64,000 nt of DNA from Mobula birostris (Eukaryota). The stretch spans positions 21,927,825 to 21,991,824 of the forward strand of contig NC_092393.1 in the NCBI RefSeq assembly GCF_030028105.1, in the 5' to 3' direction. Below the pieces are notes generated by a model. The model saw nothing but the letters and a program-made list of their open reading frames with translations, made no database searches and was not told where the DNA came from. Made by a program: the position numbers and the translations under genes. Of the stretch, positions 397-49,364 are shown piece by piece; the stretch's first letter is position 1, and the number at the start of each line of letters is the position of its first letter.

Positions 397-490
397 CAAC
401 ACGCACAACACGCTGGAGGAACTCAGCAGGTCGGGCAGCATCCATGGAAATGAACAGTCAACATTTCGGGCCGAGACCCTTCATCAGGGT
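397..490 (-). mobile_element. 94-nt Penelope-like pLTR mini-insertion with hammerhead motif
   Basis: Minus strand reads accCTGATGAAGGGTCTCGGCCCGAAATGTTGACTG...GATGCTGCCCGACCTGCTGAGTTCCTCCAGC; 13-bp TSD tatcagttaaaaa at 384-396 and 491-503. Confidence 0.85.
456..487 (-). ncRNA. Minimal type I hammerhead ribozyme motif (CpG-decayed)
   Basis: CTGATGA core, stem II GGGT-CTCG-GCCC, GAAA core, then TGTTGAC (inferred consensus CGTCGAC). Confidence 0.7.
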
Positions 491-1279: not shown

Positions 1280-4079
1280 TAGTCCGTAAGCCAGGATGCC
1301 AAATTTGGGCCACTGGTACCATCTGTGGGGAATAATTCTTATAGTGATTTTTGGCAAGGTATATACTCCTAGTGCTAGAACATAAGTGATAGCATTGCAG
1401 CAGTGGTAGCTTTCTGTGAGGGAGACTGGGAGTGGCACCTCCACGCTATAAGAACCATGATGCCATGGTGCTTTGTCTATGATAAGATGAATTCTGCCAG
1501 GTACCTGTCCCCTTACTTTGCTCAGATGATGAACCTCCCAGAGAAGAAACCTTCTGTGAAACCTTCAAGACAGGCCAATTCTCAGTGCAGCTGTCAAGTA
1601 ACAACCCCTTTGGGCAGATCCCTGTGGACCAGGCTATTGAAGCCACAGTGAACAAAGACACACTGACTCCTGGAGGCACATCACGGTTCAGCCTGAATGC
1701 TGGAGCTATCAAGCATTACTACATAACAGCTGAGCACCACAGTACATTGCTGGGACAGTTAAGGGAGATGGTGCAAGGCAACAAATCAGAGCTTTGTCAT
1801 GCGGAGCTACAGCGGCCGAAAATCCAGAAAGATGAGGAAGCAGTTTCAGCAGTGGTTAGCCTCATACATGCATGGGTCAATCCATTTGCTGAGAAGCAGG
1901 ACCTCATTAGCATCTCTACGGCAAAGGCAGTCCACAAGGACATTGCCTCCGACCTGATGAAGGCATATGAGATTGGTGAGCAATGCTATGCAACCTTCAA
2001 CGATGAGAGACTAGAGGAAGACCCACTAGCAAAGAATTTCCATGACACAATGAAAACCAACAAGTTGAAAACATTCAGGGATATGTGTAAGAAGAGAGAA
2101 GTGAAATCAAATGAGAGGGCGATCATCTTGAAAGCAGGCAAGTCTTTGTTTGAACACATCATAGTGATGGGCACAAGGGCGCAGTCTACGTATGGAGGAT
2201 ATCCTTTCTCATCTCCTTGGACCATTGCCCTGGGCCCTGTCCACACCAGAAGGATTGCTGAGAAAGACAAATAAAGCTACTTTAGCCACAACCTTGCTGA
2301 AAAATGTAGCAGTAGAAGAGCAACACTAAGGAAAATCTGCTACAGTGATTGATGGAATGACTTGGTCCAAAGGAGAAAGATGATCAAGTTACTTTCAGAG
2401 ATGTTGCCACAACAATTCTGGGTATGGCTCTGAGGGAAGGCAGTCAGAGTAGCAGAATAGATGTTGTGTTCAACACATACAAGGAGAACTCTATCAAGAA
2501 TAGTGAAAGATCTCTACGGGGTGAAGAGATTGGTCATGAGTTGCAAGGTATCACAGGCACACAGATGGTGAGGCAGTGGAGGAGCTTCCTGACCAAAGTC
2601 AGTAACAAAAATAGTCTCATTAGCTTCATAGTCCATGAATGGAGCAAGGCAGAGTACAGAGCAAAGCTACAGGAGAAGATTCTGTATGCAACTGTGAATG
2701 ACAAATGTTACAGAATCGCATCTCAAGACAGTGAGGAGGTATCAGCTCTTCAGTCTCAACAAGAAGAAGCAGATGGCCATCTACTTCTCCATGCTGCCCA
2801 TGCCACAAAAGATGGATACCAGTCTATCGTGATCTGCTCAGAAGACACAGATGTCTTTACCATATCTTTAGCATTTTTGTGACAGATTGAGGCCCCATTG
2901 TTCTAGAAGTGTGGCACTAGGACCCGTACAAGTCTTTTAGACATCAGGAAGGTTGCTGTCACTGTTGGCATAGAGGTTTGTAGGGCTCTCATTTGGTTGC
3001 ACGTATATACAGGATGTGACACTGTAAGTGCTTTTGCAGGCAAAGGGAAGACAAGTACCCTAAAACTTCTGACCAGCAACAGGGAAACTCAGGACACATT
3101 CTTAGAGTTGGATCAGGAATGGGACCTCTCCCCAGAACTGATGGACAAACTGGAGGCATTTACATGACTCCTGTATGCCCCAAAAGTATCGACCACCAAG
3201 GTCAATGAGCTCAGGTATCACCTTTTCTGTGCCAAAAAAGATGAAATCGAAAGTCATCAACTCCCACCATGCAATGACTGCTTAACAAAATATGCACAGT
3301 GAGCCAACTACCAGGCTGATATATGGAGAAGATGTTTGGAGAAGGACCCACAAGTGTCAAGCCCTGTTGGCAGAGGACGGAAGATGGAGAGAGAAGAGGA
3401 AGCTGAACAGTTGGTGGTGCATTGAATGGAAGGCCAGCCAGCACCTAATGCCATCCTGGATCTACTGGCCTGTAACTGACCAAAAAAATGTTCACTCCCA
3501 AGATGTATGTGTGTTGCAAATGGCCTCAGGTGTACTGACATGTTTAGACTGGCAGACTGTGAGAACCAGGCATCCACCTCAGAGAGTGTGCAAAGTTCAG
3601 ATGAAGACGTGGAAGACTTGGAAAATTATTATGATTATTAATAGGTTATGAAAGTATGGAAAACAAAGTATGCAAAGCAGTCTTTGATTAAATATATTCA
3701 CTTCACAACCAAATGGGGCCTAGATTATGGCCGTGTGGAACCCCACATTTGAATTATTGTACTGTAATTCTATATGCTATGACAAAAGCTTAAGATTGTT
3801 TTGATTTGATACAATATGGAAAATATCATGACATTGATAAAACTCCAGAAATCTCTCCAAATGAGGTTTTACACCTTTTGGAGGGTGGGGTAACATTTTC
3901 TGCTGTACTGATGTTAATATGGAATACTGTATATACAAAAAGTGATTACTTACCTGAAGTAATAAAGCTACCACTGGTGGAATGATTTTCTAACTCTAGA
4001 GATGTATACCTTGCCAAAAATCACTATGAACATTATTCCGCTCAGATGGTACCGACCATCCTCACTGGCTCACGGACTA
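1280..4079 (+). mobile_element. AcademX DNA transposon, internally deleted non-autonomous copy 1
   Basis: Imperfect TIRs 1280-1413 and 3964-4079 (TAGTCCGTAAGCCAG...CTGGCTCACGGACTA); 3-bp TSD tct at 1277-1279 and 4080-4082; coding remnants of transposase, XPG nuclease and Cys-rich finger. Confidence 0.85.
1414..3640 (+). pseudogene. Disrupted Academ protein (C-terminal transposase part, XPG/FEN1-like nuclease, Cys finger)
   Basis: Across frames: EGDWEWHLHA, NSARYL, DQAIE, QEEADGHLLLHAAHA, SEDTDVF, GCDTVSAFAGKGK, CN*PKKCSLPRCMCVANGLRCTD; several frameshifts and stops. Confidence 0.85.
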
Positions 4080-8253: not shown

Positions 8254-8872
8254 GAATCAGGTTTAATATCACCGGCATGTCATGAAAATTATTAACCTTG
8301 CGGCAGCAGTACAATGCAATACATGATAACAGAGAGAAATAAAACTGAATGGTGGATGGCAGCTTTCTGAGGCAGGGCTCCTTGAAGATGTCCTGGATAC
8401 TATGGAGGCTAGTACCCATGATGGCGCTGACTAATTTTACAACTCACTGCAGCTTACTTCGATCCTGTACAGTAACCCCCAGCCCTCCATACCAGACGAT
8501 GACGCAGCCAGTTAGAATGCTCTCCACAGTACGTCTCTAGAAATTTGTGTATGTTTTCGTGATATAACAAACCTCCGCAAAATCCTCATGAAATATAGCC
8601 ATTGTCTTGCCTTCTTAATAACCGCGTTGATATACTGGGTCCAGGTTAGGACCTCAGAGTTATTGACACCCAGGAACTTGGAATTGCTCACTCTCTCCAT
8701 TTCTGATCCTTCTATGAGGACTGGTTTGTGTTCCCTCACCTTGCCCTTTCTGAGCTCCACAGTCAGTTCTTTGGTCTTACTGACATTGAGTACAAGGTTG
8801 TTGCTGCAACACCTCTCAACAAGCTGATATATCTTGCTCCTATATGCCCCTTTCATCACAATCTGAGATTCT
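8254..8872 (-). mobile_element. Rex/Babar-type LINE 3' portion
   Basis: ORF 8512-8859 NNLVLNVSKTKEL...KFLGV...KKARQWLYF; gattct-type tail at 8254. Confidence 0.8.
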
Positions 8873-9967
8873 GTGACAGGAGCCTTGCACGTAATAAAGT
8901 CACCATGTTATTCCTTGGAGATGGAAGATTAATGGAAGAGGTAACACCTCAACTAGTAATTTCAAACTTTATACTCACTTTATATTTTAGCACTAATTTT
9001 TGTACTAGTTGATGATCTGTAAAGGTCTTCCAATAACATGGCCATTTTCTTCATGTGCTTTATATCAACCCATGTAGAATCTGTTTGATTGCATAGTTAT
9101 TTATGTCTAATCTCATTATGGCTATACTATTCTTTCATTTAATATGATGAACACCATCTACCTTCCTTTTTAATTCCTGATACGCAATAACAATATTTAA
9201 TTGCCAATCATGATCTTTCAGTATTCATGTTTGCATTATACCTTTCACCTGCTTACTTTAAATAATGATAGATATTGCCCCATATTGCTGACGCTCAATA
9301 CATTGTTATACATGAAACTTAATACAATTTTTCATGAATGTTATTTTTCATCATGCCAGCTTTATTTGCAAATGTTTTGCTATTACCTGGAACCATTCAA
9401 ATATCTAAAAATGCTGATTTCATCATTTTATTCTTCACTATCTTTTATTCTTAGCATTTCTTTCTCTTAACTTTATAACAGGTCAGTCTTGCTCAGTCCA
9501 ACCTTTTGCTCACACAAGTTCAAGCTCATGTTTATTATCATTCAACCTTTGACATTTAAAAAAATAATTAAAAATACATTAAACTACTTTGATTTAATGA
9601 AAAATGTGAGTAAAGCAAAACTTCAAAAAAATCGAAAATCTTAATATGTTCATTTCTTTTTAATGAAGGTCAACAATGCCATTCAAATACATGGGTGTAT
9701 TGTAGGGATTGAGTGAAGCAAAGTGGATCTCGCCACTCAGTTCAGTATGGTGCTCAATTGTTACTGGACCCAGAGAGGGGTTCAATGGTCGAACAGGAGG
9801 TGAGCTGCACCAACATCCAATATCTGGCACATTTCCAGTCCTGCACTACAATGCACAGAAGAACAAGCTGCATATATATTGAAAATCAATTCAAACTATC
9901 ATATCAAAAAAGACCCACCTACTTCTTCTGGTCAAATTCTACCACCTTCATATGAGGCAAGCATCAG

Positions 9968-12200: not shown

Positions 12201-13918
12201 TTGTCCATGAGCTCATAGAGGAAGTCAGCCAGGCTACAAATTGATGGGGGAAGGGAGTGTTGAGTGAGGTGTAGTATTAATGATCAAGAGGGCAGAGGGA
12301 ATATAAATGTTCAGACCGTGGCACCGAGGAGAGGGTGACTGGGTCAGACGAAATGGGTCGGGGGAAGATGAAAGAGATTGTTCAGTTTGGAGGAGATGGG
12401 GATTTGAAAGGCACTGTGGACCATGAAGAAATAGTTGGGTTAATGTTTTCTTGAGAGTGGGTTGATCATAGATGAGTAAAGACACGGAATGTAGGTGAAG
12501 AGCAAGAGGAAAGGCCTACTTGAAATAAGGGAAAATGAGAAGTTGATAGGAGCTACAAAGAGGTAGTTACTCCTAAGCTGCAGGAGGCAGGTAGCTGGGT
12601 GACTGTTGTGTGAGGAAAAGGGAATATGCAGCCAAAGCAGAGTACCTCTGTGGCCATTCCAGTCAAGAGTAAATACACCACTTTGGATACTGTTGGGAGA
12701 GAAGTCCAACTGGGGGAATCCGCGGTGGTTGGCTCTGAGCCTGGCTCTGTGACTCTGAAGGGAAGGGGGAGAAAAGGAGTGTAGTAGTGAAAAGGATTCC
12801 ATAGTTAGAGGAGCAGATAGGAGATTCTGTGGATGTGAACGAGACACCTGGATAGTATGTTGCCTCCCCAGTGCCAGGGTCAGGGATGCCTCTGATCGAT
12901 TCCATAGCATTCAAAAGGGAGAGAGTGAGCAGCCAGAAGTTGTGGTACATATTGGTACCAATGATATAGGAAGGAAAAGGGTGGAGGTCCTGAAGAGATG
13001 GTATAGGAAGTTAGGTAGAAAGCTGAAAAGAAGGACCTCCAGGGTAGAAGCCACTCATAATAAGATGATTTAGGAGATGAATGTGTGGCTGAGGAATTGG
13101 TGCAGGGGCAGGTTGCAGGTATCTGTGTCATTGGGGTCTATTCTGTGGATGGTGTGACCTGTACAAAAAGGACGAGTTACACCTGAACCCAAGGGGAAAC
13201 AATATACCCATGGACAGGTTTGCTAGAGCTGTTGGGGAAGGTTTAAATTAATTCAGCAGGAGAATGGGAACCAAAGTGAGAGGGCTGAGGATGGGGCAGT
13301 TGGCATACAAGTACATGCAGAGTGTAGTGAACCAGTGGGTAAGGACAATCAGGTCATATGGCAAAATTGCAGTCAGTCAGGTGAGTTACAGTGTAACATG
13401 GGGGCAAAATCGAAAAGGGTGATGATACAGGACTGAATGTGTTATAAATGAATGTACGCAGTATACAGAACGAGGTAGTTGACTTTATAACGCAGTTGGA
13501 GATTTGCAGGTATGACTTTGTGGGGATCGCTGAGATATAGTTGAAAGAAGATCATTACTGGGAGGTTACCATTCAAAGATACACATTGTATTAAAAGGAC
13601 AGGTAGGTAGGCAGGGTGGGGTGTGGTGGCTCTGTCAGAAGTCTAACCCTTAGGAAAAGATGACATTGGATTGAAAGATGTAGAATCATTATGAGTAAAG
13701 AAATTGCTATGATAAAAAGACCATAATGGGAGTTATTTACAGGCCTCCAATCAGTAGCCAGGATTTGGGATACAAATTAAAATCGGAGATAAAAAAGTCA
13801 TGTCAAAAAAGGAAATGATATTCATCATGGGTTTCAATATGCACATAGACTCAGAAAATTAGGTTGGTGCTGGATTCCAAGAGAGGGTATTTGTAGAAAG
13901 TCACAACTTGGCTTTTTA

Positions 13919-14105
13919 CCAACACACTCAAAATGCTGGAGGAACTCAGCAGGCCAGACAGCATCTAGGAAAAGAGTACAGTCGATGTTTCAGGCTGAAA
14001 CCCTTCAGCAGGACTCTTTTCCTAAATGCTGCCCGGCCTGCTGAGTTCCTCCAGCATTTTGTGTGTATTGTTTGGATTTCCAGCATCTGCAGATTTTCTC
14101 TCATT
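13919..14105. mobile_element. Fold-back Penelope-like pLTR insertion nested in CR1
   Basis: Inverted arms about 13921-13977 and 14013-14066; hammerhead remnant in the loop; repeated target tggcttttta at 13909-13918 and 14111-14120. Confidence 0.8.
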
Positions 14106-14979
14106 TGAGATGGCTTTTTAGAGCAGCTTGCGGTTGCACCCACGAGGGGAAAGGCAATTCTTGATTGGGTGTTGTGTAATCAGCCATATTTGATAATGGA
14201 GCTTAAGGTAAAGGAATCCTTATAAGACAATGATCATAATATGGTAGAATTCACCCTGCAGTTTGAGAAGCTAAAGACAGATATATCGGTATTATAGTGA
14301 AGCAAATGGAATTACAGAGGTATGCACGAGGACCTAGCCAAATTTGATTAGAAGGGGACATGAGCAGGGATAACAACAGAGCAGCAATGGCGGGAGTTTC
14401 TGGGAGCAATTCGGAAGGCGCAGAATAGATATATCCCAATGGTGAACAAATATTCTAAAGAGTGGATTACGCAACTGTGGCTGATGAGGTAAGTTAAAGA
14501 CAACATAAAAGCAAATGAGAGGGCATATAATATCGCAAAAATTAGAGGAAAGTTAGAAGATTGAGAAGCTATTAAAAACCAACAGAAGACAACCAAAAAA
14601 AACATAAGGAGGGAAAAGATGATGTATGAAGGTCAGCTAGCCAATAATATAAAAGAAGATTCCAAGAGTTTTTTTTTTACATATATAAAGAGTAAAAATA
14701 GTTGTGTGAGCAGATATCATACTGCTAGGAAACAATAAAGACTGTTAATAAGTATTTTGCATCAGTCTTCACTGTGGAAAACACAAGCAGTATGCCAAAA
14801 ATTCGAAAGTGTCAGCGGGCAGAAGTGAGTGTGGTTGTTATACTAAAGAGAAGATGCTTGCCAAGCTGAAAAGTCTGAAGATAGATAAGTCACCTGGACT
14901 AGATGGAGTACACCCGCAGGGTTCTGAAAGGGGTAGCTGATGAGATTGTGGAGGCATTTGTAATGGCATTTCAGAATCA

Positions 14980-15272
14980 GAATCAAGTTTATTGTCACCG
15001 GCATGTGCCATGAAATTTGTTAACTTAGCAGCAGCAGCAATACAATGGAATACATGATAATATAGAAATCAATCAATCAATTATAGTAAGTATATGTATG
15101 TATTTTGAATAGATTAAAAATAGTACCAGACAGAAATAATATATATTTTTTTAAAGTGAGGTACTCTTCCTGGGTTCAATGTCCATTTAGAAATCGTATG
15201 GCAGAGGGGAAGAAGCTGTCCCTGAATCGCTGACTGTGTGCCTTCAGACTTCTGTACCTCCTTCCTGACGGT
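14980..15272 (-). mobile_element. Rex/Babar 3' fragment nested in CR1
   Basis: (gattct)n tail; aatca repeated at 14975-14979 and 15273-15277; CR1 sequence resumes afterwards. Confidence 0.75.
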
Positions 15273-18467: not shown

Positions 18468-18845
18468 GGCAGCATGGTAGCGTAGTGCTTAGCACACACT
18501 TCACAGTACAGGCGACCCAGGTTCAATTCCCACTGCTGTCTGTAAGGAGTTCGAGTTTGTACATTCTCCCCATGACCACATTGGTTTCCTCCAGGTGCTA
18601 CGGTTTTCTCCCGAAGTCTAAAGCTGTACCGGAAGGTAGGTTAATGTGTCATTGTAAATTGTGCTGAAATTAGGATAGTTTAAATCAGGGATTCAAGCAA
18701 CACACATCAAAGTTGCTGGTGAACGCAGCAGGCCAGGCAGCATCTCTAGGAAGAGGTACAGTCGACTTATCAGGCCGAGACCCTTCGTTAAATCAGGGAT
18801 TGCTGGGTCTATTGGGCACTGTATCTCAATAAGTAATAAATAAAT
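18468..18845 (+). mobile_element. V-SINE (HE1-like) interrupted by a 94-nt insertion
   Basis: tRNA head ggtagcgtagtg / ggttcaattccc, V-domain ggtttcctccaggtgct, aataaa tail. Confidence 0.8.
18694..18787 (-). mobile_element. 94-nt Penelope-like pLTR mini-insertion
   Basis: 14-bp TSD ttaaatcagggatt at 18680-18693 and 18788-18801; sequence matches pLTR 36009-36096. Confidence 0.85.
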
Positions 18846-20606: not shown

Positions 20607-20692
20607 CGGACTTGACTCGAAATGTCGACTGCTTATTCCCTGCCATAAATGCTGACTGACCTACTGAGTTCCTCCAGCATTTTGTATATTGG
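20607..20692 (+). mobile_element. Old short Penelope-like pLTR fragment
   Basis: cgaaatgtcgactg...atgctgactgacctactgagttcctccagcattttg. Confidence 0.65.
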
Positions 20693-22068: not shown

Positions 22069-25000
22069 AACATAGAAACATAGAAACATAGAAAATAGGT
22101 GCAGGAGTAGGCCATTCGGCCCTTCGAGCCTGCACCGCCATTTATTATGATCATGACTGATCATCCAACTCAGAACCCTGCACCAGCCTTCCCTCCATAC
22201 CCCCTTACCCCCATAGCCACAAGGGCCATATCTAACTCCCTCTTAAATATAGCCAATGAACTGGCCTCAACTGTTTCCTGTGGCAGAGAATTCCACAGAT
22301 TCACCACTCTCTGTGTGAAGAAGTTCTTCCTAATCTCGGTCCTAAAAGGCTTCCCCTCTATCCTCAAACTGTGGCCCCTCGTTCTGGACTTCCCCAACGT
22401 CGGGAACAATCTTCCTGCATCTAGCCTGTCCAATCCCTTTAGGATCTTATACGTTTCAATCAGATCCCCCCTCAATCTTCTAAGTTCCAACGAGTACAAG
22501 CCCAGTTCATCCAGTCTTTCTTCATATGAAAGTCCTACCATCCAAGGAATCAATCTGGTGAACCTTCTCTGTACTCCCTCTATGGCAAGGACGTCTTTCC
22601 TCAGATTAGGGAACCAAAACTGCACACAATACTCCAGGTGTGGTCTCACCAAGGCCTTGTACAACTGCAGTAGTACCTCCCTGCTCCTGTACTCGAATCC
22701 TCTCGCAATAAATGCCAGCATACCATTCGCCTTTTTCACCGCCTGCTGTACCTGCATGCCCACTTTCAATGACTGGTGTATAATGACACCCAGGTCTCGT
22801 TGCACCTCCCCTTTTCCCAATCGGCCACCATTCAGATAATAATCTGTTTTCCTATTTTTGCCACCAAAGTGGATAACTTCACATTTATCCACATTAAATT
22901 GCATCTGCCATGAATTTGCCCACTCACCCAACCTATCCAAGTCACCCTGCATCCTCTTAGCATCCTCCTCACAGCTAACACTGCCACCCAGCTTCGTGTC
23001 TTCCGCAAACTTGGAGATGCTGCATTTAATTTCCTCATCCAAGTCATTAATATATATTGTAAACAACTGGGGTCCCGGCACTGAGCCTTGCTGTACCCCA
23101 CTAGTCACCGCCTGCCATTCTGAAAAGGTCCCGTTTATTCCCACTCTTTGCTTCCTGTCTGCTAACCAATTCTCCACCCACACCAATACCTTACCCCCAA
23201 AACCGTGTGCTTTAAGTTTGCACACTAATCTCCTGTGTGGGACCTTGTCAAAAGCCTTTTGAAAATCCAAATATACCACATCCACTGGTTCTCCCCTATC
23301 CACTCTACTAGTTACATCCTCAAAAAATTCTATGAGATTCGTCAGACATGATTTTCCTTTCACAAATCCATGCTGACTTTGTCTGATCATTTCACCGCTT
23401 TCCAAATGTGCTGTTATCACATCCTTGATAACTGACTCCAGCAGTTTCCCCACCACCGACGTTAGGCTAACCGGTCTATAATTCCCTGGTTTCTCTCTCC
23501 CTCCTTTTTTAAAAAGTGGAGTTACATTAGCCACCCTCCAATCCTCAGGAACTAGTCCAGAATCTAACGAGTTTTGAAAAATTATCACTAATGCATCCAC
23601 TATTTCTTGGGCTACTTCCTTAAGCACTCTAGGATGCAGACCATCTGGCCCTGGGGATTTATCTGCCTTCAATCCCTTCAATTTACCTAACACCACTTTC
23701 CTACTAACATGTATTTCGCTCAGTTCCTCCATCTCACTGGACCCTCTGTCCCCTACTATTTCTGGAAGATTATTTATGTCCTCCTTAGTGAAGACAGAAC
23801 CAAAGTAATTATTCAATTGGTCTGCCATGCCCTTGCTCCCCATAATCAATTCACCTGTTTCTGTCTGCAGGGGACCTACATTTGTCTTTACCAGTCTTTT
23901 CCTTTTTACATATCTATAAAAGCTTTTACAGTCTGTTTTTATGTTCCCTGCCAGTTTTCTCTCATAATCTTTTTTCCCCTTCCTAATTAAGCCCTTTGTC
24001 CTCCTCTGCTGAACTCTGAATTTCTCCCAGTCCTCAGGTGAGCCACTTTCTCTGGCTAATTTGTATGCTTCTTCTTTGGAATTGATACTATTCCTAATTT
24101 CTCTTGTCAGCCACGGGTGCACTACCTTCCTTCATTTATTCTTTTGCCAAACTGGGATGAACAATTGTTGTAGTTCATCCATGCAATCCTTAAACGCTTG
24201 CCATTGCATATCCACCATCAATCCTTTAAGTGTCATTTGCCAGTCTATCTTAGCTAATTCACGTCTCATACCTTCAAAGTTACCCCTCTTTAAGTTCGGA
24301 ACCTTTGTTTCTGAATTAACTATGTCACTCTCCATCTTAATGAAGAATTCCACCATATTATGGTCACTCTTACCCAAGGGGCCTCTCACGACAAGATTGC
24401 TAATTAACCCTTCCTCAGTGCTCAAAACCCAGTCCAGAATAGCCTGCTCTCTAGTCGGTTCCTCGACATGTTGGTTCAAAACACCATCCCGCATACATTC
24501 CAAGAAATCCTCTTCCTCAGCACCTTTACCAATTTGGTTCACCCAATCTATATGTAGATTGAAGTCACCCATTATAACTGCTGTTCCTTTATTGCACACA
24601 TTTCTAATTTCCTGTTTAATACCATCTCCGACCTCACTACTACTGTTAGGTGGCCTGTACACAACTCCCAACAGCGTCTTCTGCCCCTTAGTGTTACGCA
24701 GCTCTACCCATATCGATTCCACATCTTCCCGGCTTATGTCCTTCCTTTCTATTGCGTTAATCTCATCTTTAACCAGCATCGCCACCCCTCCTCCCCTTCC
24801 TTCATGTCTATCCCTCCTGAATATTGAATATCCCTGAACGTTGAGCTCCCATCCCTGGTCACCCTGCAGCCATGTCTCTGTGATCCCAACTATATCATAA
24901 TCATTAATAACAATCTGCACTTTCAATTCATCCACCCTATTATGAATGCTCCTTGCATTGACACACAAAGCCTTCAGGCGCTCTTTTACAACTCTCTTAG

Positions 25001-25099
25001 CCCTTATACAATTATGCTGAAAAGTGGCCCTTTTTAATGCTTGCCCTGGATTTGTCGGCCTGCCACTTTTACTTTTCTCCTTAGTACTTTCTCCTTAGT
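22069..25099 (-). mobile_element. Young 5'-truncated CR1 LINE
   Basis: (tctatgtt)n 3' octamer repeat at 22069-22092; APE endonuclease and RT ORFs in one frame; aacat on both sides. Confidence 0.95.
22170..24968 (-). pseudogene. CR1 ORF2 (APE endonuclease plus reverse transcriptase), one in-frame stop
   Basis: NARS, ITETW, GDFN, SDHN; NYRPVSLTS, YLDFQKAFD, QGSVPGP, FAEDTK; the 278-aa and 650-aa ORFs share a frame, separated by TGA at 24132-24134. Confidence 0.93.
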
Positions 25100-29370: not shown

Positions 29371-29514
29371 TCTCCACACCCTCATTCAGCTACCTCCACA
29401 CTTGTGTTATTAAGCCTAGCTTGTTTTCTGGTTTATCATGGACATTCTCTTTTCCTTTCTGCCCTATCCACTTATCTACTGCATAAAGCATGCACCCACA
29501 TGGCTTCACCCCTC

Positions 29515-30165
29515 GCAAACAAGAGAACATCTGCAGATGCTGGAAATTCAAGCAGCACATACAAAATGCTGGAGGAACTCAGCAGGTCAGGCAACATCTA
29601 TGGAAATGAATAGATAGGCAACATTTCAGACCAAGATCTTTCTTCAGGATTGAGAAGGAAGGGAGAAAATGCCAGAATAAAAAAGCGGAATTAGGGGAAG
29701 GTGGCTAGCTGGAAGGTAATAGGGGTGAAGCCAGGTGGGTGGGAAGGTCAAGAACTAGAGAAGAAAGAATCTGATTGTAGATGAGAGTGGACCATGAGAG
29801 AGAGGGAAGGAGGATGGGACCCAGGGGGAGGTGGTAGGCAGATGAGAAGAGGTAAAAGGTCAGAGTGGGGATCAGAAAAAGGGGGAGGAAATTTGTTGAC
29901 CAGAAGTAGAAATCGATATTCATGCCATCAAGTTGAAGGCTACCCAGACGGGAATATAAGGCATTTCTCTTCCACCCTGAGGGTGGCCTCATCTTGGCAC
30001 AAGAAGAAGCCATGGACTGACATGTCTCAATGGAAATGGGAATGGGAATTAACATGTTTGCCCGCAGGGAAGTCCCGCTTATTTGGATAGTGCAGAGCTG
30101 TTTGACAAAACAGTCTATTTGCGACAAGTCTTACCAATGCAAAGGAGGCTGTATCGGGAGCACAT
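29515..30165 (-). mobile_element. Penelope-like element 3' portion (GIY-YIG C-terminus and pLTR), decayed
   Basis: LGSLQLDGMNIDF; degenerate hammerhead CTGAAGA...GAAATGTT at 29617-29650. Confidence 0.8.
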
Positions 30166-32300: not shown

Positions 32301-32756
32301 ATTACAGAAATAGTGGTAAATAGTGGTAAACCAGAAACTTCGGAGTTCAAATCAATTTGTGGGTATTTATACAATTAAATACTATAACATAACTGTTGTA
32401 ACTATGAATGACTGCAGATAATGAAAACTAATGATTTGGATCTTTGTCAATGTAAAGAAACAAGTAATCCTTTCTGGTCCAGCGTATGGATGTAATTCCA
32501 GTCCTTATCATTACAGGTTTGATTCCCAATTGTTCGGAGATGTTCCACAAGTAGAGTGGGGTAAGAAGTCTGGAATTGTTGGTATGTTTTGTATGCAAAG
32601 AATCAAATACTGGGGCTAGTCTTCTTTGGTCTTGCAACCTTTTAGAAAAATTCCAAAATGATATGAAATAGTAGTCCAGCCAATTTGTAGGTCTTAGCAA
32701 ATGCAGTCATTGTAGGAATCAAACTACTTTCTTTTAAAACAATATTCCTAATTATT

Positions 32757-32850
32757 GTGTCCTGACGAAGGGTCTTGGCCTGAAACATTGACTATACCTC
32801 TTCCTACAGATGCTGCCTGCCCTGCTGCATTCCACCAGCATTTTGTGTGG
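32757..32850 (+). mobile_element. 94-nt Penelope-like pLTR mini-insertion with hammerhead motif
   Basis: gtcCTGACGAagggtcttggcctGAAACATTgac; 13-bp TSD attcctaattatt at 32744-32756 and 32851-32863. Confidence 0.85.
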
Positions 32851-33139
32851 ATTCCTAATTATTAACAGACTGTTCCTGAGTCTTGTACGCTTTACTCCTA
32901 CTTCCTGTGAATCCAGTGTATCCACAGCTTTTTTGACATTCTTTCTATATTATTGAAAAACATTCAGGTGATCGACCACACGCAGGAGCGGAAAAGAGGA
33001 AACTGTGTGATAATGGATAAATGATGCGTAGCTTTGCTTTTCAAAACTTGTTGAGCTGTGGGAGGACTGATGGGACGAAGAATTCAAGAAGAATGAGTGC
33101 TATACTTTAAACAACCCTCCGTGGTAACAAAGATTCAGG

Positions 33140-33745: not shown

Positions 33746-36008
33746 AAGAAAATGACTAATAGTTTTGATTCCAAAGGATTGCCCAGAAATTCATTCATTC
33801 TTATTGGCTGAAAAATCACAGTAATGCTTGTAAATCTAATTCTTGCCAACTATCGTCTGCCAGCCCTTGTCTCACCCTTTCATCTCACCTCCTTGTACTG
33901 GTCATTTCCCCAATAGTGTCTCAGTTCCAGAATCTCAACCCAAAATCGCAACTATCGCTTTGCCTCAGCAGATGCTGCTTGACTTGTTGAAATCGTCCAC
34001 ATGTTTGCTTTCTGCTCAGGACTCTGGCATCTACAGATCCTTACACCTCCACCTTATATCTGAACCATTTTCCCAAATTACATGTCAGGTTGAAATCTTC
34101 ACATGATGATGGAGATGATTTCAGGGGAAAAAAATCTGCTCCAGTGAATACAAACAACCAGGTCAACACTATATAAAGAATTCTTTTAAAATTATAATTC
34201 AAGGAAAGTGCAGATCAAAGAATTGGAAATAAACACATAATTCTAGCTTTTGTAATACAAACATTTATCACCCATGCCTCTCTGGTAAAAAGAAATCATA
34301 TGGTACACCCAACAGTTATCTACAACAAATCAGTCTGCACTTTCAATAAAATAAACCATGTCTGACCTCTTTACTTCCACTGCTGAAGTGTTTGAATGGA
34401 TAATACTACTTTCCCTAAAAGCATGATGAAATGTTCACTGATTTACACATCATTAATCTGGCAATCCAGACGTTCCAACAGCCCACACTGCAATCTACAC
34501 TCCCACCACACTCCCACCCATTGGTTAAAATTGACAGCCTTAGTGTTTAGAAGTAGTACATTTCCATCAGATTATATGACATTTCTAAGAACAAGTATTC
34601 ATTCAGCCATTTATCTGGACTGTGCATGCGTGCATTCGCTTTATCTGAAGAAATTCATTGTACACTTGTGGATTATATCTCTGTCTCTACAAGACAGTAG
34701 AGATATGTTCAAATGAATTCTGCCTGGTAGCAGAGCTTCAATAACTTCTGTCTATTTCAGGTTGGCACCTTGCCCAACTTGAAACTTGAGGTAGCTGTTA
34801 ACAAACTACCCATTTGCAACGTGGCCCATTAACATGTTTTTAATGACCACAATTAATGCCAACTAATATTGAAGGATTTATTATTCTCCTGTTGGCTAAT
34901 ATAACCAACTTGCATAAGATGTGTCAGAAACAAGCATGAATTATTAAAACAAAATACATATTTTATCACTGCTAATTCTTAAGATTCCTTGATAAATATA
35001 TTGTTTATTGAATTATTCTTTGCATGAGAATTGACTCGATAGGTTATTGTAGAATTTACTTAAGTACCCTCTTTATTTGACTGTTTTTCTTTGGAATACT
35101 GCAATTATATCTGCAGGATAATGGCTGATAATGGTTTTCAAGTGAGCTATGCTTTACAGAGGTGCCATCGAGTAACAAGAGCAAAGCACTAATATTTCAC
35201 CTATAACTTGAATGCATGTGTTCATTGCATTCTCATTGACCTTTCGTTGATTAACATTTTCTGCAAGGTACAGGTTCTATTTGCCTTAGTCGCCATTTGT
35301 CCATCTTTCCTTACTCACCTTTCACCCTTCTTTTTTAGAAGATGCTGATTATTGATGGAGCTTGACTCTGGTGCCTGAGATTATTATCGTGCATTGCCAC
35401 CACTTTAGTCATGACCTGAACATTTTAAGTAATGCAATGAAGGACAGACTGAGCTCAATCTCAACAAAGCATTTCCCATTAATTGATTACTGCATAGCAA
35501 GTGAAATGATAAAATCTAACCTTTGAAATACTCGGCAACACACAAAAAATGACGGAGGAGCTCAGCTGGTCAGGCAGCATCTATTGAAGTGAATGAACAG
35601 ACAACGTTTTGGGCAGAGACCTTTCTTCAGGGCTGGAAACAAAGGGTGATGACGCCAGAATAAAAAGGTGGGGGGAGCAGAAGGAGATGAGCTGGAAGGT
35701 GAAGGTGAAGCCAGGTGGGTGGGAAAGGTCAAGAGCTGGAAAATCTGATAGGAGAGGAGAGTGGATGGTAGGAGAAAGAAAAGGAGGAAAAGACCCAGGG
35801 GGAGGTGATAGGGTGAAAAGAGGTAAGCGACCACAGTGGGGAATAGAGGAAGCGGGAGGGGGAAGGAAATATTATTTTACTGAAGGAAAAATCAATATTC
35901 ATGCCATCAGGTTGGAGGCTACACAGATGGAATATAAGATATTGCTCCTCCACCCTGGAGTGGGGGGGGAGTGCGCGGGGGTGCTAATCCAGGCACAAAA
36001 GGAGGCCA

Positions 36009-36682
36009 CACACATAAAAGTTGCTGGTGAACGCAGCAGGCCAGGCAGCATCTCTAGGAAGAGGTAAAGTCGAAGTTTCGGGCCGAGACCCTTCGTCAGG
36101 ACTAACTGAAGGAAGAGCTAGTAAGAGATTTGAAAGTGGGGGGGGAGGGGGAGATCCAAAATGATAGGAGAAGACAGGAGGGGGAGGGATGGAGCCAAGT
36201 GTTGGACAGTTGATTGGCAAAAAGGATATAAGAGGATCATGGGACAGGAGGCCTGGAGAGAAAGAAAGCGGGGGGGGGGGGAGCCCAGAGGATGGGCAAG
36301 GGGTATAGTGAGAGGGACAGAAGGAGAAAAAGGAGAGGGAGAGAAAGAATGTGTGTTTATAAATAAATAACGGATGGGGTACGAGGGGGAGGTGGGGCAT
36401 TAGCGAAAGTTTGAGAATTCAATGTTCATGCCATCAGGTTGGAGACTACCCAGACAGAATATAAGGTGTTCTTCCTCCAACCTGAGTGTGGCTTCATCTT
36501 TACAGTAGAGGAGGCCATGGATAGACATATCAGAATGAGAATGGGACGTGGGATTAAAATGTGTGGCCACTGGGAGATCCTGCTTTCTCTGGCACACAGA
36601 GCGCAGGTGTTCAGTGAAACGATCTCCCAGTCTGCGTCGGGTCTCGCAATTAAAATGTGTGGCCACTGGGAGATCCTGCTTT
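36009..36682 (-). mobile_element. Younger Penelope-like element (GIY-YIG C-terminus, pLTR, hammerhead)
   Basis: ETRRRLGDRFTEHLRSV...PVATHFN...LEEEHLIFCLGSLQPDGMN; pLTR with hammerhead. Confidence 0.85.
36068..36103 (-). ncRNA. Minimal type I hammerhead ribozyme motif
   Basis: agtc-CTGACGA-AGGGTCTCGGCCC-GAAAC-TTC-gact: stem I agtc/gact, both core boxes intact. Confidence 0.75.
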
Positions 36683-37639
36683 GACCGACATGTCAGAACG
36701 GATATGGGAATAGAAATTAAAATGTCTGGCCGCCAGGAAGTTGGGGTTTTGGAATTGATCAGTGCTGTTGGAATGATCAGCATTAATGCTCAGCATTTAA
36801 TACTGATCTACTGATCATATACATTATGTATACGATCATGAGCACTGTGCATGAATATTAGGCTACCTCGTGTCAAAAAGGTTCACAAATTGCTTTAGTG
36901 TTTGTATAGGTGTTACTGAGGGAGATTGTGGGTAAATGATGTGGAGGGGGCAGGGAGGGAATGCACTTCACCGCTCATGCTATTTCCCAATTGAAATAAA
37001 GGAGACTACAACATCAGGAACCAGTGCTTTTTGGCATTGTTTCTATCATTCTGACCACAACATGTGTTTGAAAAGAGAATGAGCACTTGCAAACAAGTAT
37101 TTCAAAATGAAAGTAGAACTGTAATAATGCTGGATTCTGACTTCAGAAGTATTTTGCCTATAAGCATTATCATATTTGTCTTCGGAACTGCAGTGCAAAA
37201 AGAATTCTGGGTCACAGCGATTTTCAGTGCTGTGAACAAGTTTTTTTTGAAAAACAGATCTATGAATACTGTTCCATTGACATCAACAAGTTCTAAAACT
37301 GCATCTCTCTGTGCAAAGTCATTAAATCATGAGCAGTTTTCAATTCCAAACTGTTCAACTGATCAGTCAGAAGCTGTGAAAATTACACTGATGTACCATT
37401 CTTCATTATCTGTGTTCTCTAATTATATAAAAAAGCTGTGGCTAAAAACTTGAGGATGTTGACATTGAATAGTCAGTGAAGTGTTTACTTTTAGGAATCT
37501 AGGACTGAAAGCTGTCAACCATTGGGTGAGCTACATGGAAACTAAGTGAATAACTGCATTTAAAGGGAGTTGGCTATGTACCTGTGTCTCTTTAAAGATA
37601 TTTTATGCAGGTGGAATAGACATGAAGCAGTTACTGAGG

Positions 37640-38100
37640 TCATTGAGAGATTAGTAGTGGAAAGGGTGAGCAGCTTCAAGTTCTTGAGCATCAATATCTC
37701 AGGGGATCTATCCTGGACCAACATAATGATGCAGCTATGAAGAAAGCACACCAGAGGCTCTACTTCATTTGGGATTTGAGGAGAATTAGCATGCCACCAA
37801 GGACAAGGACTCTGGCAAATATCTACAGATGTAACATGGAAAGCATTTTGACTGGTTTTATCACCGCCTGGTATAAAGGCTCAATTGCACAGGATCAAAA
37901 GAGGCCACAGAGTGCTGTAGACTCAGCCAGATCCATCATGGGCACAAACTTCCCCACAATTGAGGACAATTTCAAAAGGCAGTGTTTCAAGAAGGCATTA
38001 TTAAATCCCCTCAGCATCTAAGACACTTCCTCTTCTCATTACCACCACCATGAAGGAGGTACAGGAGCTTGAAGACCCACTTTCAATATTTTACCAGGAT
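37640..38100 (+). mobile_element. Rex/Babar LINE 3' portion
   Basis: ORF 37737-38021 KKAHQRLYF...YRCNMESILTGFITAWY. Confidence 0.8.
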
Positions 38101-44680: not shown

Positions 44681-46913
44681 TTGACCCAACAACATAGAAC
44701 CAATACAACTTTAAGGCATCTTTTATCTTCATCACAGCAGTTTCTGAACAATCCACTTTAAGGAAGAGAACATTTGTTAATTTTAGGAACATGCTGCTAC
44801 AGCAGGGTTATACCATCGTGAGGTACCAGCATGTTACAAGGATCATTTGCTAAGATAAATGTGCATCTTTCCACTTTCTGAAGTTATATTTTTAAAGTTC
44901 CTGGTTGGTTGTAGTATTGGTTGATTCCAGCTCCAAAACTATTACTGTTCCACCAATATGAATTTAGATCTAGCAATGCAACATTCCACTGGCACAGATC
45001 ACCCAGGGCAATTTGGTCATTTAATGCCAATTTGCATCAGTTTAATAGAAAATGTTCCTGCTGTGTGTTCGCAGCCTGTGGGAATTAGACCAAGACTTTC
45101 TAAACTTATCTCAGGTAAAATCTTTTCAACTATCACAAAGCCTTCCCAGACATAATTGTAATCTGAATATGAAATCATGAAATATTTTGGTTGCGTTATT
45201 TCTGGTTCTAATATTGGAAAAGAAAACCAGTACTGCGATAGGTAATTACACAATAAAATGCAATTGTTTCTTTTTATTTTGATTCTGGGAGGCAAGACAA
45301 GCTTTGTAACTTCAGTGTGGGTTAAAAGCCCTCATTTAGTATTTCTAAATGTGGGAACATCTTAATCTGAAGAATTATCTTTGAATCATAATCTTTATTA
45401 ACTATTAACTGGAGTAGAATTATAACATTGCCACAGTTAACTAAACCTAATTTGTTTTCCATATCACCAAAAGATCTTCTTATATAATGTGAGCATTAAA
45501 AAGGGTTGAAGTGAGTAGTTTTACCACCAACTCTCTGAGAGCTCCAGACTTGACCTTTACATATAAGCCTTAATGTTTCAACCTTGAGGAATACTAGATT
45601 GCAGAGAACATTACAGATGAATCTGATTATGTTTAGTATTCAACTTCCATAACTTCTGGCGTAAGATATGGAATAACCAACAGAAGCAGTAATATCTGCC
45701 TCCTTATCACCTCTGCCTCCTGGGATCACTACCATTATTAGCAACGACCACCGTGCCAACATGAAAATAAAGGTTGGATCAATCTTTTGAAGAGCCATTT
45801 AATGATTGATCATAAATAACTTATATTGACCTCATATACCTGATGGTAAACATTCCAAAATTAAAATCAAAAGAACATAAATGTATTTTTTTCCATTTTC
45901 TTTGAACACATTGAAATCATTTTTTGTTCAACCGGCTGAATTTTTGTATGATCTAATTTCCTGTGCTTCTCACACCAAAGGGTGATCTAAAGTTTGCGTT
46001 GTATGCCACAACTCTCCCTTCAAGAAACTAGTGATAGGTCCTGATGTTTACATTGGTGGTAACACTGTGAGAAAATGTGAGAAAATGTCTGCCCACCCTC
46101 CCCAATTATCCCTGCTCCCAGTATCTAATTTTACATGTTCCTGCTTATGATTTGCTATTCTCACTCAATATGTTTTAAACAGTTAATCAGTCATTATAGT
46201 ATTGTATTCTGTGATAACCATCTGATTTGGCAAAAGTAGTTAGAAAGGTTTCCCTATTAATGATGATGAAAGACAAAGATTTATTGGTCAATGCTATTTC
46301 ATCAAATGTGCCTACAGAATTGTAGAAAACAGTCAGTAGTAATCTGCAGTCCATTGGAGAAAAGAGCATTCTATGCCCCCTGAGTTACAAGGAGTTCTGT
46401 AGGGCATGCCACCATGAATCCTGGAAATGTAGTTTCCACACACTGACTTTAACGATCCTCATGCTGATTACATATTTTTTTTTTATTGCCAATTGATGGT
46501 GATGTTGCCCTAGACAACAGTCAAACAAAATTGTTTTATTACATTGTATTTTCTTTATCATTTTGACCGCATATATTCTCCATGAACCTTGGAGTACAAA
46601 GAATCACTTATTCCTGCGATACCAAGAATAATTTAATATTTGGGTTCGGAGTTGACAGAAATAATTCCATGATCTGATGCTCTCAGGAGAAACTTATGTC
46701 TCGCTTTACCTGTCTCCCACCTATCTGTTGCCCATCTCCACTCCTCCTACTCCCCTACTTGGTTTCTTCAGTCTGTATCCCTTCACAAATCATTAGCCCA
46801 CTGCTACTTCACAGCCCGCTCCCCACTTTACTCTGGGAACTTCCCTCTCCACTCTCAGTATTGATATTGGGCTTGAACCTGAAATACTGAAAATTTCTTT
46901 CTCTACATGCTGG

Positions 46914-49364
46914 TAGTCCGTGAGCCAGGACCCCAAATTTGGGCCACTGGTACCATCTGGGGGGAATAATTCTTACAGTGATTTTTGGTAAAGTATATAC
47001 CACTAGTGCTAGAAAATATGTGATAACATTGCAGCGGTGGTAGCTTTCTGTGAGGAGGACTGGGAGTTGCACCTCCATGCTATAAGAATCATCCTTTGCC
47101 TATGATAAGATGAATTCTGCCAGGTACCTGTCCCCTTACTTTGCTCAGATGATGAACCTCCCAGAGAAGAAACCTTCTGTGAAACCTTCAAGACAGGCCA
47201 ATTCTCAGTGCAGCTGTCAAGTAACAACCCCTTTGGGCAGTTCCCTGTGGACCAGGCTATTGAAGCCACAGTGAACAAAGACACACAGACTCCTGGAGGC
47301 ACATCATGGTTCAGCGTGAATGCTGGAGCTATCAAGCGTTACTACATAACAGCTGAGCACCGCAGTGGATTCCTGGGACAGTTAAGGGAGATGGTGCAAG
47401 GCAACAAATCAGAGCTTTGTCATGCGGAGCTACAGCGGCCAAGAATCCAGAAAGATGAGGAAGCAGTTTCAGCAGTGGTTAGCCTCATACATGCATGGGT
47501 CAACCCATTTGCTGAGCAGCGGGACCTCATTAGAATCTCTACGGCAAAGGCAGCCCACAAGGACATTGCCTCCGACCTGATGAAGGCATATGAGATTGGT
47601 GAGCAATGCTATGCAACCTTCAAGGATGAGAGACTAGAGGAAGACCCACCAGCAAAGAAACTCCATGACCCAATGAAAGCCAACAAGCTGAAAGCATTCA
47701 GTGATATGTGTAAGAAGAGAGAAGTGAAATCAAATGGGAGGGCGATCATCTTGAAAGCAGACAGGTCTTTGTTTGAACACATCATAGTGATGGCACAAGG
47801 GCGCAGTCTACGTATGGAGGATATCCTTTCTCATCCCCTTAGACCATTGCCCTGGGCCCTGTCCACGCCAGAAAGATTGCTGAGAAAGACAAATAAAGCT
47901 ACTTTAGCCACAACCTTGCAGAAAAATGTAGCAGTAGAAGAGCAACTCCCAGGAAACTCTGCTACAGTAGTTGATGGAATGAACTCGGTCCAAAGAGTGA
48001 AAGATGATCAAGTTACTTTCAGAGATGTTGCCACAACAATTGTGGGTATGGCTCTGAGGGAAGGCAGTCAGAGTAACAGAATAGATGTTGTGTTCGACAC
48101 AAACAAGGAGAACTCTATCAAGAATAGTGAAAGATCTCTACGGGGTGAAGAGACTGGTCATGAGTTGCAAGGTATCACAGGCACACAGATGGTGAGGCTG
48201 TGGAGGAGCTTCCTGACCAAAGTCAGTTACAAAAATTGTCTCATTAGCTTCATAGTCCATGAATGGAGGAAGGCAGAGTACAGAGCAAAGCTACAGGAGA
48301 AGATTCTGTATGCAACTGTGAATGACAAATGTTACAGAATCACATCTCAAGACAGTGAGGAGGTGTCAGCTCTTCAGTGTCAACAAGAAGAAGCAGATGG
48401 CCATCTACTTCTCCATGCTGCCCATGCCACAAGAGAAGGACACCAGTCTGTAGTGATCTGCTCAGAAGACACAGAAGTCTTTATCATGTCTTTATTATTT
48501 TGTGACAAGATTGAGGCCCGATTATTCCAGAAGTGTGGCACTAGAACCCGTACAAGGCTTGTAGACATCAGGAATGTTGCTGTCACTGTTGGCATTGAGG
48601 TTTGTAGGGCTCTCATTTGGTTGCACGCATATATAGGATGTGACACTGTAAGCGCTTTTGCAGGCAAAGGGAAGACAAGTGCCTGGAACTTCTGACCACG
48701 AACAGGAAAACTCAGGACACATTCTTCGAGTTGGGTCAGGATCCACTGGCCTGTAACTGTCCAAAAAAATGTTCACTCCCAAGATGTATGTGTTTGCAAA
48801 TGGCCTCAGATGTACTGACATGCGTAGACTGGCAGACTGTGAGAAAAAGGCATCCACCTCAGAGAGTGTGGAATGATTAGATGAAGATGTGGAAGACATG
48901 AAAGACTTGGAAAATTATTATGATTATTAAATAGGTTATGGAAGTATGGAAAACAAAGTATGGAAAGCAGTCTTCATTTTACAACCAAATAGGGCTTAGG
49001 TTATGGCCGTGTGGAACCCCATATTCGAATCGTTGTACTGTAATTCTATATGCTATGACAAAAGCTTAATTTTATTTTGATTTGATACAATATGGAAAAT
49101 ATCATGACATTGATAAAACTCCAGAAATCTCTCCAAATGAGGTTTTTTACCATTTGGGGGGTGTGGTAACATTTTCTGCTGTACTGTTGTTAATATGGAA
49201 TACTGTATATACAAAAAGTGATTACTTATTTTAAGTAATAAAGCTACCACTGGTGGAATGCTATCACATATTTTCTAACTCTAGAGATGTATACCTTGCC
49301 AAAAATCACTATGAGCATTATTCCCCTCAGATGGTACCGACCAACCCTACTGGCTTACAGACTA
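46914..49364 (+). mobile_element. AcademX DNA transposon, non-autonomous copy 2
   Basis: TIRs 46914-47047 and 49240-49364 (TAGTCCGTGAGCCAG...CTGGCTTACAGACTA); colinear with copy 1; inserted in an old pLTR (46700-46913 and 49365-49420). Confidence 0.85.
47208..48695 (+). CDS. Academ-derived open frame (transposase C-terminal part plus XPG/FEN1-like nuclease), 495 codons, probably non-functional
   Basis: DQAIE, VVDGM, VVFDT, QEEADGHLLLHAAHA, SEDTEV, GCDTVSAFAGKGK. Confidence 0.6.
   Translation: MQLSSNNPFGQFPVDQAIEATVNKDTQTPGGTSWFSVNAGAIKRYYITAEHRSGFLGQLREMVQGNKSELCHAELQRPRIQKDEEAVSAVVSLIHAWVNPFAEQRDLIRISTAKAAHKDIASDLMKAYEIGEQCYATFKDERLEEDPPAKKLHDPMKANKLKAFSDMCKKREVKSNGRAIILKADRSLFEHIIVMAQGRSLRMEDILSHPLRPLPWALSTPERLLRKTNKATLATTLQKNVAVEEQLPGNSATVVDGMNSVQRVKDDQVTFRDVATTIVGMALREGSQSNRIDVVFDTNKENSIKNSERSLRGEETGHELQGITGTQMVRLWRSFLTKVSYKNCLISFIVHEWRKAEYRAKLQEKILYATVNDKCYRITSQDSEEVSALQCQQEEADGHLLLHAAHATREGHQSVVICSEDTEVFIMSLLFCDKIEARLFQKCGTRTRTRLVDIRNVAVTVGIEVCRALIWLHAYIGCDTVSAFAGKGKTSAWNF

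Follow-up and report, generated by a model that had tools for sequence, protein, structure and literature searches.

A short palindromic insert in a decayed CR1-like LINE of Mobula birostris is a miniature of the known architecture of Penelope-like elements (PLEs), and the best explanation for it is that both target strands served as primers. The origin of the inverted pLTRs and one-sided tails of PLEs is stated as open in the accessible text of the relevant papers (PMC3846280, PMC8557442, PMC11167929). Miniature palindromes of this kind reduce the problem to two arms with readable ends. The insert lies near 13909-14120 of the window, by which we mean the whole stretch of 64,000 nt that was analysed.

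Layout of the insert and its target site

Read along the top strand, the locus passes from target to an arm without tail, then to the hammerhead loop, the tailed mirror copy and again target. The features are as follows.

13433..13918, plus strand: CR1-like LINE endonuclease region, upstream part of the decayed host (tblastn with the window's young LINE, residues 40-211)
13905..13918, plus strand: left copy of the target duplication, 13-14 bp, with the exact core at 13909-13918 and the outer 3-4 bases changed
13919, no strand: single base, differing from the commonest next element base and from the next target base
13920..14015, minus strand: minus arm, a tailless pLTR stub of 96 nt; it begins at the 5' edge of hammerhead helix I and reaches the proximal 3' end
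13980..14015, minus strand: candidate decayed minimal type I hammerhead, read from the sequence, with the predicted cut after 13984; fills the hairpin loop
14013..14015, no strand: joint, ACT common to both arms
14013..14107, plus strand: plus arm, a pLTR stub of 95 nt from 6-9 nt past the predicted hammerhead cut to the distal 3' end
14071..14107, plus strand: tail of 37 nt (up to about 41), in the plus arm only; also in the copy 29514-29700
14107..14120, plus strand: right copy of the target duplication; 14107 is readable as element or target
14109..14441, plus strand: CR1-like endonuclease region, downstream part of the host (tblastn residues 203-315, E 2.6e-17)

The inverted-repeat arms 13920-13977 and 14013-14070, of 58 nt each, are 91% complementary, are spaced 35 nt apart and constitute the sole inverted pair within 13000-15000. 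Folded as DNA, the hairpin reaches -64.9 kcal/mol (z = -11.4), a stability equalled by none of 200 shuffles. The insert measures 188-189 nt, the distance between the target-duplication copies being 202. Because the two arms are identical at 53 of 58 positions, match the eight other window copies less well (45-51 matches over 59-68 columns) and have in common a 12-base start variant found in none of those eight, the comparison of copies shows them to be, by all appearance, derived from one source. The plus arm starts at element position 39, six bases past the predicted cut. Both arms include the ACT at 14013-14015; by chance, about 5% of joints would show a microhomology of at least 3 nt. GACT at 14012-14015 is also identical to the first four bases past the predicted hammerhead cut. 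At 14071, the mirror of the single base 13919, the commonest letter among the aligned contigs is C.

The CR1-like endonuclease frame is interrupted near 13918 by the insert and picks up again at 14109, at D-G-F-L. The tblastn query was the young LINE at 22170-25094, and Pfam matches to Exo_endo_phos and RVT_1 support the identity of the host. An exact 10-base duplication, TGGCTTTTTA, is present at 13909-13918 and 14111-14120. Contigs of other CR1 copies connect 13898 to 14108 in all four runs, forming empty-site joints (9 among the 15 joints listed of 1,525). The one such row with its letters displayed has 8 letters between 13898 and 14108; this places the return to target sequence at 14107-14108 and gives a duplication 13-14 bp long, with 2-3 mismatches at the outer end of its left copy.

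A sequence-only reading of this locus had described two opposed pLTR pieces of about 94 nt each, joined through ACT, with a hammerhead remnant in the loop of a hairpin and duplicated CR1 target as flank. Most of this description holds: the minus piece, 13920-14015 with 96 nt, stands exactly as given, and so do the microhomology and the motif that fills the loop (14015-13980 on the minus strand). The plus piece begins where proposed, at 14013, but its end had been placed at 14105 (93 nt) and runs to 14107 (95 nt), with ambiguity up to 14110. The hairpin exists, with a stem of 58 bp in place of the proposed 55 or so, and the flanking duplication in CR1 is real, at 13-14 bp and not 10.

Several observations concern the surroundings. 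About half of the ten bases at 13899-13908 in the left flank differ from other CR1 copies, far above the rest of the flank, and this stretch loosely resembles the reverse complement of the distal end of the element (7/10, by eye). The young CR1-like LINE at 22170-25094, on the minus strand, retains long open frames for endonuclease (320 aa) and RT (653 aa), with a AACATAGA repeat at 22069-22098. Two similar copies of a further element, possibly a DNA transposon, are found at 1486-3651 and 47109-48695, the second with a 528-aa frame that gave no Pfam match at E 0.01. Fragments of one other non-LTR family occur at 8512-8907, 37647-38021 and 54391-54951, two of them with RVT_1 and ALKBH8_N Pfam matches.

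Contigs of four runs were aligned to 13720-14319 (101,670-112,945 per run). Loose ends cluster at 13920 (968-1219 contigs per run), at 14066 (787-1029) and at 14101 (772-1081, where the consensus continues for a few bases), all among the 24 rows listed of 2,673. Positions 13920 and 14066-14070 are the proximal 3' end of the element, and the distal end lies just beyond 14101. The gap of 37-41 nt between the two ends equals the known PLE tail. Clusters at 13967 and 14026 were rejected as ends, the alignment breaking there and the consensus going on as element. The outer end of the minus arm falls on the proximal cluster and that of the plus arm on the distal one.

The joint between the arms is bridged by a contig of another organism (X17 record 18), aligned over 13962-14066 with 14 other letters and 3 gaps in 108, or about 50 letters on either side of the joint at 84-87% likeness. 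This argues against an assembly artefact, and the contig may represent the same locus in a related species. Among the listed contigs of the four runs, none covers the whole insert stretch. Another contig of another organism (X10 record 9, 13740-13943) reaches only 24 letters past the left joint, below the bridging rule, and gives a weak hint: it either inherited the same insertion or carries a different one in this CR1 position.

Among the joints listed are six others of the head-to-head kind (13957-13967 to 14026-14042), supported by 0-7 contigs per run, and they show that inverted joints recur at varied positions, as expected of separate events. One of them, 13965-14039, is a plain skip, with 18 letters between in X10. 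Of the 12 rows listed (of 800) that have letters between, 7 go back within the pLTR part, and six of these are tandem 3' pieces with periods of about 31-65 nt.

Identity of the element

Stubs of the pLTR are dense in the window, at about ten in 64 kb, with eight further clear copies of its sequence plus a few faint ones. One copy is longer:

36008..36682, minus strand: longer copy of a related subfamily, with the end of a PLE frame, a pyrimidine-rich UTR, a hammerhead and the proximal 3' end

This copy, whose subfamily is about 81% like the minus arm, is what appears to link the stubs to a coding element. Its 81-aa frame end (36403-36645) matches 10 of 30 candidate proteins, the best at 91% identity (E 5.5e-41), and the best matches are annotated in rays. 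GIY-YIG was detected in 5 of 6 scanned matches at E 0.0005-0.002, below the Pfam cut-off, together with RVT_1 in one. The frame fragment of the window itself gave no Pfam match, and the ESM Atlas returned unnamed clusters plus a weak GIY-YIG lead. The closest protein match, P0001, has a CX4CxxC linker and two cysteines inside GIY-YIG. According to the accessible text of PMC8557442, a CX2-5CxxC linker before the endonuclease, together with GIY-YIG cysteines, marks Neptune and is common to Nematis. Because P0001 has both the linker motif and the cysteines, we call the element a putative Neptune-type PLE, a name given by motifs rather than by an RT tree. The arrangement of endonuclease-bearing PLEs, with RT followed by a C-terminal GIY-YIG in one frame, is seen through the matches of the related subfamily. 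The optional tail of 30-40 bp at one end corresponds to 14071-14107, and an inverted 5'-truncated copy lies, as in such PLEs, within a single target duplication.

The pLTR is predicted to hold a minimal hammerhead, a further mark of endonuclease-bearing PLEs. Its core, helix I and palindromic helix III are readable in an alignment of 10 copies, and in this insert two positions are changed (CUGCUGA for CUGAUGA/CUGACGA, and GAAACAUC for GAAACGUC). Minimal hammerheads of this kind have been described for metazoan PLEs (PMC4209133, accessible part). An Rfam search found no hammerhead; a match to Plastid-psbJ-4 was rejected as a generic hairpin (37.5 bits vs a cut-off of 55.2). Six pieces folded as monomer RNA did not surpass their shuffles and did not take the hammerhead shape.

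The younger-looking copy 36008-36682 sits inside the frame end of an older copy of another subfamily (35536-36750), in the same orientation, and no duplication was found around it. At the 5' end of the long PLE copy, an exact 34-nt repeat (36553-36586 / 36649-36682) with a period of 96 nt was seen as a single case; it looks like a jump back of the RT by about one unit length, and a 3-base microhomology may explain it. Faint, old pLTR-like pieces are present at 33886-34039, 46823-46912 and 49366-49412, two of them with tail-like sequence, their ends being too decayed to measure. Outside the window, a pattern scan gave 0 and then 35 matches in metagenomes and 4 in prokaryote genomes; these 39 loci were dropped as chance 20-mers, none aligning to the element over at least 30 bases. 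Viral contigs, scanned twice for the element, gave 0 matches.

Probable priming on both strands and its alternatives

We consider it probable that the insert arose from a single retrotransposition event of a Neptune-type PLE by dual priming, a judgement that covers the steps below without any fixed product length. A GIY-YIG endonuclease would have nicked both strands of the CR1 copy 13-14 bp apart, the distance that the duplication records. The 3' end of the top strand would have primed a cDNA on the pLTR RNA, beginning at the proximal start site. The 3' end of the bottom strand would have primed another, beginning at the distal start site, which lies 37-41 nt further in the 3' direction. Because both cDNAs copy the same 58 nt, the templates would have been either separate RNA molecules, two in number, or a single RNA with two copies of the pLTR. 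Both cDNAs stop after about 94-96 nt, as the arms show; their 3' ends would then have met at ACT/AGT or bluntly, and fill-in would have fixed the palindrome. The steps are given in their presumed order.

Dual priming is favoured by the 37 nt of the second arm for which the first arm could not have been the template. The two outer ends fall on the two 3'-end clusters of the element, as expected if these are start sites, and one duplication, of the same length as in the solo stubs described below, surrounds the whole insert. A snap-back product would hold nothing in its second arm beyond the first, and here the plus arm has a 37-nt extra tail. Twin priming of the L1 type would leave little overlap between the arms and an internal deletion, and here 58 nt are present in both. 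The label "fold-back" given to the insert by the sequence-only reading is therefore wrong, the tail being only on the arm that would have been the copy, which is impossible for a self-folding target-primed cDNA. The bottom strand offers no way around this: a cDNA from the right nick that continued on an antisense template would again need a second product. The proposal of the sequence-only reading that both nicked strands primed fits the geometry better than its own title does, and its part on unit-length products is only partly borne out. A simple fold-back of a target-primed product is ruled out by the insert, which points to both strands as primers.

Some points weigh against dual priming. 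The case is one locus, with no spanning reads and no empty allele of the insert locus seen, and the 2-3 mismatches of the left duplication copy lie within a 10-base stretch diverged from other CR1 copies. The likeness of the arms could come from later gene conversion, and a hairpin intermediate cut asymmetrically yields the same final layout. The in vitro work is on PAc, of another clade, and the accessible text reports no inverted products (PMC11167929).

The asymmetrically cut hairpin leads to the way in which head-to-head pLTRs (PMC3846280) and the tail (PMC8557442) have been interpreted in print, as far as the accessible parts of these papers go: self-priming, in which an antisense template or a free cDNA folds to a hairpin and staggered cuts by the endonuclease, before or during integration, leave a one-sided tail. 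Here, at the point where the plus arm begins, ACT finds a pairing partner in an AGT of the minus arm, as self-priming would have it. A target-primed snap-back, however, cannot put the tail on the second arm only, and with a free hairpin the cuts would have to hit both start sites, which are read as RT starts in the accessible text of PMC11167929. Self-priming also leaves solo stubs with the same duplication length unaccounted for, and we regard it as unlikely. The density of stubs, and the nesting of one copy in another at 35536-36750, would suit two separate insertions at one spot; a solo copy might also have undergone a later inverted duplication by replication template switching. There is, however, no second duplication at the joint, both arms have the same rare variant, and the left end falls on the start-site cluster and lacks microhomology for a template switch. 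Taken together we judge these two origins quite improbable. With its length of about 190 bp, its inverted arms and its target duplication, and with a similar joint in X17 record 18, the insert also resembles an element of a MITE-like family, in which the finished palindrome would itself be the mobile unit. The inverted repeat, however, is not terminal on the right, where the 37-nt tail lies beyond it, and the arms are pLTR pieces. Few contigs cross the joint: in run X1 the summed depth, which is no copy number, is 4,252 at 14022 vs 1.07 million at 14034. A high-copy MITE family has no support among the contig rows listed and a small one is conceivable, the whole explanation being to our mind very improbable.

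Dual priming, which we prefer, is allowed by in vitro work in which, in the accessible text, it is not tied to genomic inversions (PMC11167929). About 100,000 contigs per run match the 600-base stretch of pLTR and CR1, so that one assembly would give thousands of cases.

Arm length and relation to known systems

Three solo stubs in the window bear on the length of the arms.

397..490, minus strand: solo pLTR stub, 94 nt, with 13-bp exact duplications at 384-396 and 491-503
18694..18787, minus strand: solo pLTR stub of another subfamily, 94 nt, with 14-bp exact duplications at 18680-18693 and 18788-18801
32757..32850, plus strand: solo pLTR stub, 94 nt, with 13-bp exact duplications at 32744-32756 and 32851-32863

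All three of the duplication-flanked solo stubs in the window thus measure 94 nt between the longest exact copies (periods 107, 108 and 107), and they belong to different subfamilies. They start 8, 1 and 10 nt before one anchor and end 20, 26 and 16 nt from another, so that starts and ends shift together. When starts and ends were simulated as independent, equal lengths arose in 0.5% of cases and lengths within 1 nt in 3%, the ranges having been chosen after seeing the data. The palindrome, at 188-189 nt, is twice 94-94.5, its arms being 96 and 95 nt if ACT is counted twice. A scan for direct repeats (12 in 13 bases, period 40-600), whose threshold the duplication of the palindrome itself does not reach, gave 55 hits; the three solos are among them (periods 107, 107 and 108), and no other family of stubs emerged. 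All seven longer, older or unflanked copies lack an 11-bp duplication, even with one mismatch allowed, barring element-to-element or chance matches. Clear 13-14-bp duplications are found only at the solos and the palindrome, and none at the longer copies at 29510, 35536, 36008 and 56378; this difference could come from age or from a different pathway.

These lengths suggest, tentatively and short of what we would call probable, that the unit cDNA is about 94 nt long, counted from where priming occurs and independent of any RNA landmark. As part of the same tentative reading, one primed strand would give a 94-nt solo with a 13-14-bp duplication, and a dimer with both strands primed would give a palindrome of about 188 nt, the origin of inverted pLTRs. 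Such a ruler might have its physical basis in the geometry of the protein or in how much RNA-DNA hybrid a tethered enzyme can extrude; 94 bp correspond to about nine turns of B-DNA. If true, a product length fixed relative to the priming site would be new among target-primed reverse transcriptases, as far as we know. The ruler would also explain genomes strewn with short hammerhead-bearing stubs.

The lengths may also follow from the RNA. In this account, which is compatible with dual priming and which we take as a possibility still some way from likely, there is no ruler and hammerhead landmarks set the 5' ends. One cDNA would stall on reaching the 5' edge of helix I, while a hammerhead-cut RNA would let the other run off its end; the 3' ends GACT/AGTC, which are the strands of helix I, would anneal, with a loss of 5 nt between the ACT repeats, and the arms would be similar since the hammerhead (32 nt to the cut) is about as long as the tail (37-41 nt). 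The minus arm does run from the helix I edge, the plus arm does start 6-9 nt past the predicted cut with GACT at the joint, and all three solos start inside a 10-nt stretch at the hammerhead. The account, however, requires the extra 5-nt deletion, leaves the joint shift of solo starts and ends to 94 each time unexplained, and finds no RNA-seq reads ending at the hammerhead cut in the accessible text of PMC11167929. Fixed RNA landmarks explain the lengths nearly as well as the ruler.

The ruler has its own difficulties. The sample is three solos and one palindrome, and there are four far longer copies, at 29510, 35536, 36008 and 56378. A copy of about 76-90 nt at 20619 lacks a duplication, and the head-to-head joint 13965-14039 implies arms no longer than about 87 and 73 nt, provided that its centre was not deleted later. 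Multiples of 94 do not fit the copy at 36008-36682, taken as 641 or 675 nt, and the in vitro product length of PAc tracks the RNA 5' end (PMC11167929, accessible text). The palindrome had been put forward as independent support for the ruler. Its total of 2 x 94 and the solos at 94 agree with this, but only the plus arm is a new test, because the minus arm shares landmarks with the solos, and the start of the plus arm 6-9 nt downstream of the predicted cut gives the rival explanation for its length. The palindrome is consistent with the ruler and gives weaker independent support than had been thought.

The relation to the inverted pLTRs of PLEs suggested at the outset was right, an inverted pLTR with a one-sided tail being a known PLE layout. 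Inversions in endonuclease-bearing PLEs come with a duplication of 8-10 bp and a tail of 30-40 bp at one end (PMC3846280; PMC8557442), and a curation guide lists inverted pLTRs and short extensions for PLEs (PMC8969392), in the accessible parts of these sources. The nearest likeness is Pen2a_Av, with a head-to-head inverted 5'-truncated copy, a single duplication around the whole and a one-sided tail (PMC3846280; PMC8557442). Its inverted pLTR falls 37 bp short of the full ones, its optional tail has 31 bp and its duplication 9 bp (PMC3846280). Unlike Pen2a_Av as described there, the present insert consists of just two stubs of about 95 nt, lacking both a reading frame and a direct pair of pLTRs, and its arms are equal in length and offset by the tail. 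The accessible text has the authors favouring self-priming on an antisense template (PMC3846280), whereas the present locus fits dual priming better.

PAc, the Poseidon element of Anolis carolinensis, cuts and extends both target strands in vitro, with a dimer predicted, and has two internal RT start sites whose spacing equals the tail (PMC11167929). The insert resembles it in the hammerhead within the pLTR, in two start sites that define the tail and in the use that could be made of both strands; it differs in clade, and the accessible text reports neither a fixed length nor an inverted product for PAc (PMC11167929). With L1 twin priming and with the proposed "dual priming" it has in common antiparallel cDNAs from two nicks, an internal join and one duplication (PMC2837659). 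L1 twin priming uses one RNA and leaves an internal deletion, whereas here 58 nt are copied twice, as dual priming would have it; for L1, dual priming was proposed but could not be shown, according to the accessible text (PMC2837659). The insert also differs from L1 in having no poly(A) tail and in its enzyme. As in the accessible descriptions of PLE minimal hammerheads (PMC4209133) and non-LTR retrozymes (bioRxiv 10.64898/2026.07.22.740005), the motif is of type I with a palindromic helix III and is dispersed across the genome far beyond full elements; unlike the head-to-tail repeats of retrozymes, the stubs are shifted windows on a linear pLTR and not permuted units. The literature searched, which held few subscription papers and was partly accessible, reports no fixed product length for PLEs and does not apply twin or dual priming to PLE inversions. 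Set against these systems, the layout is known in kind and the length is a possible novelty.
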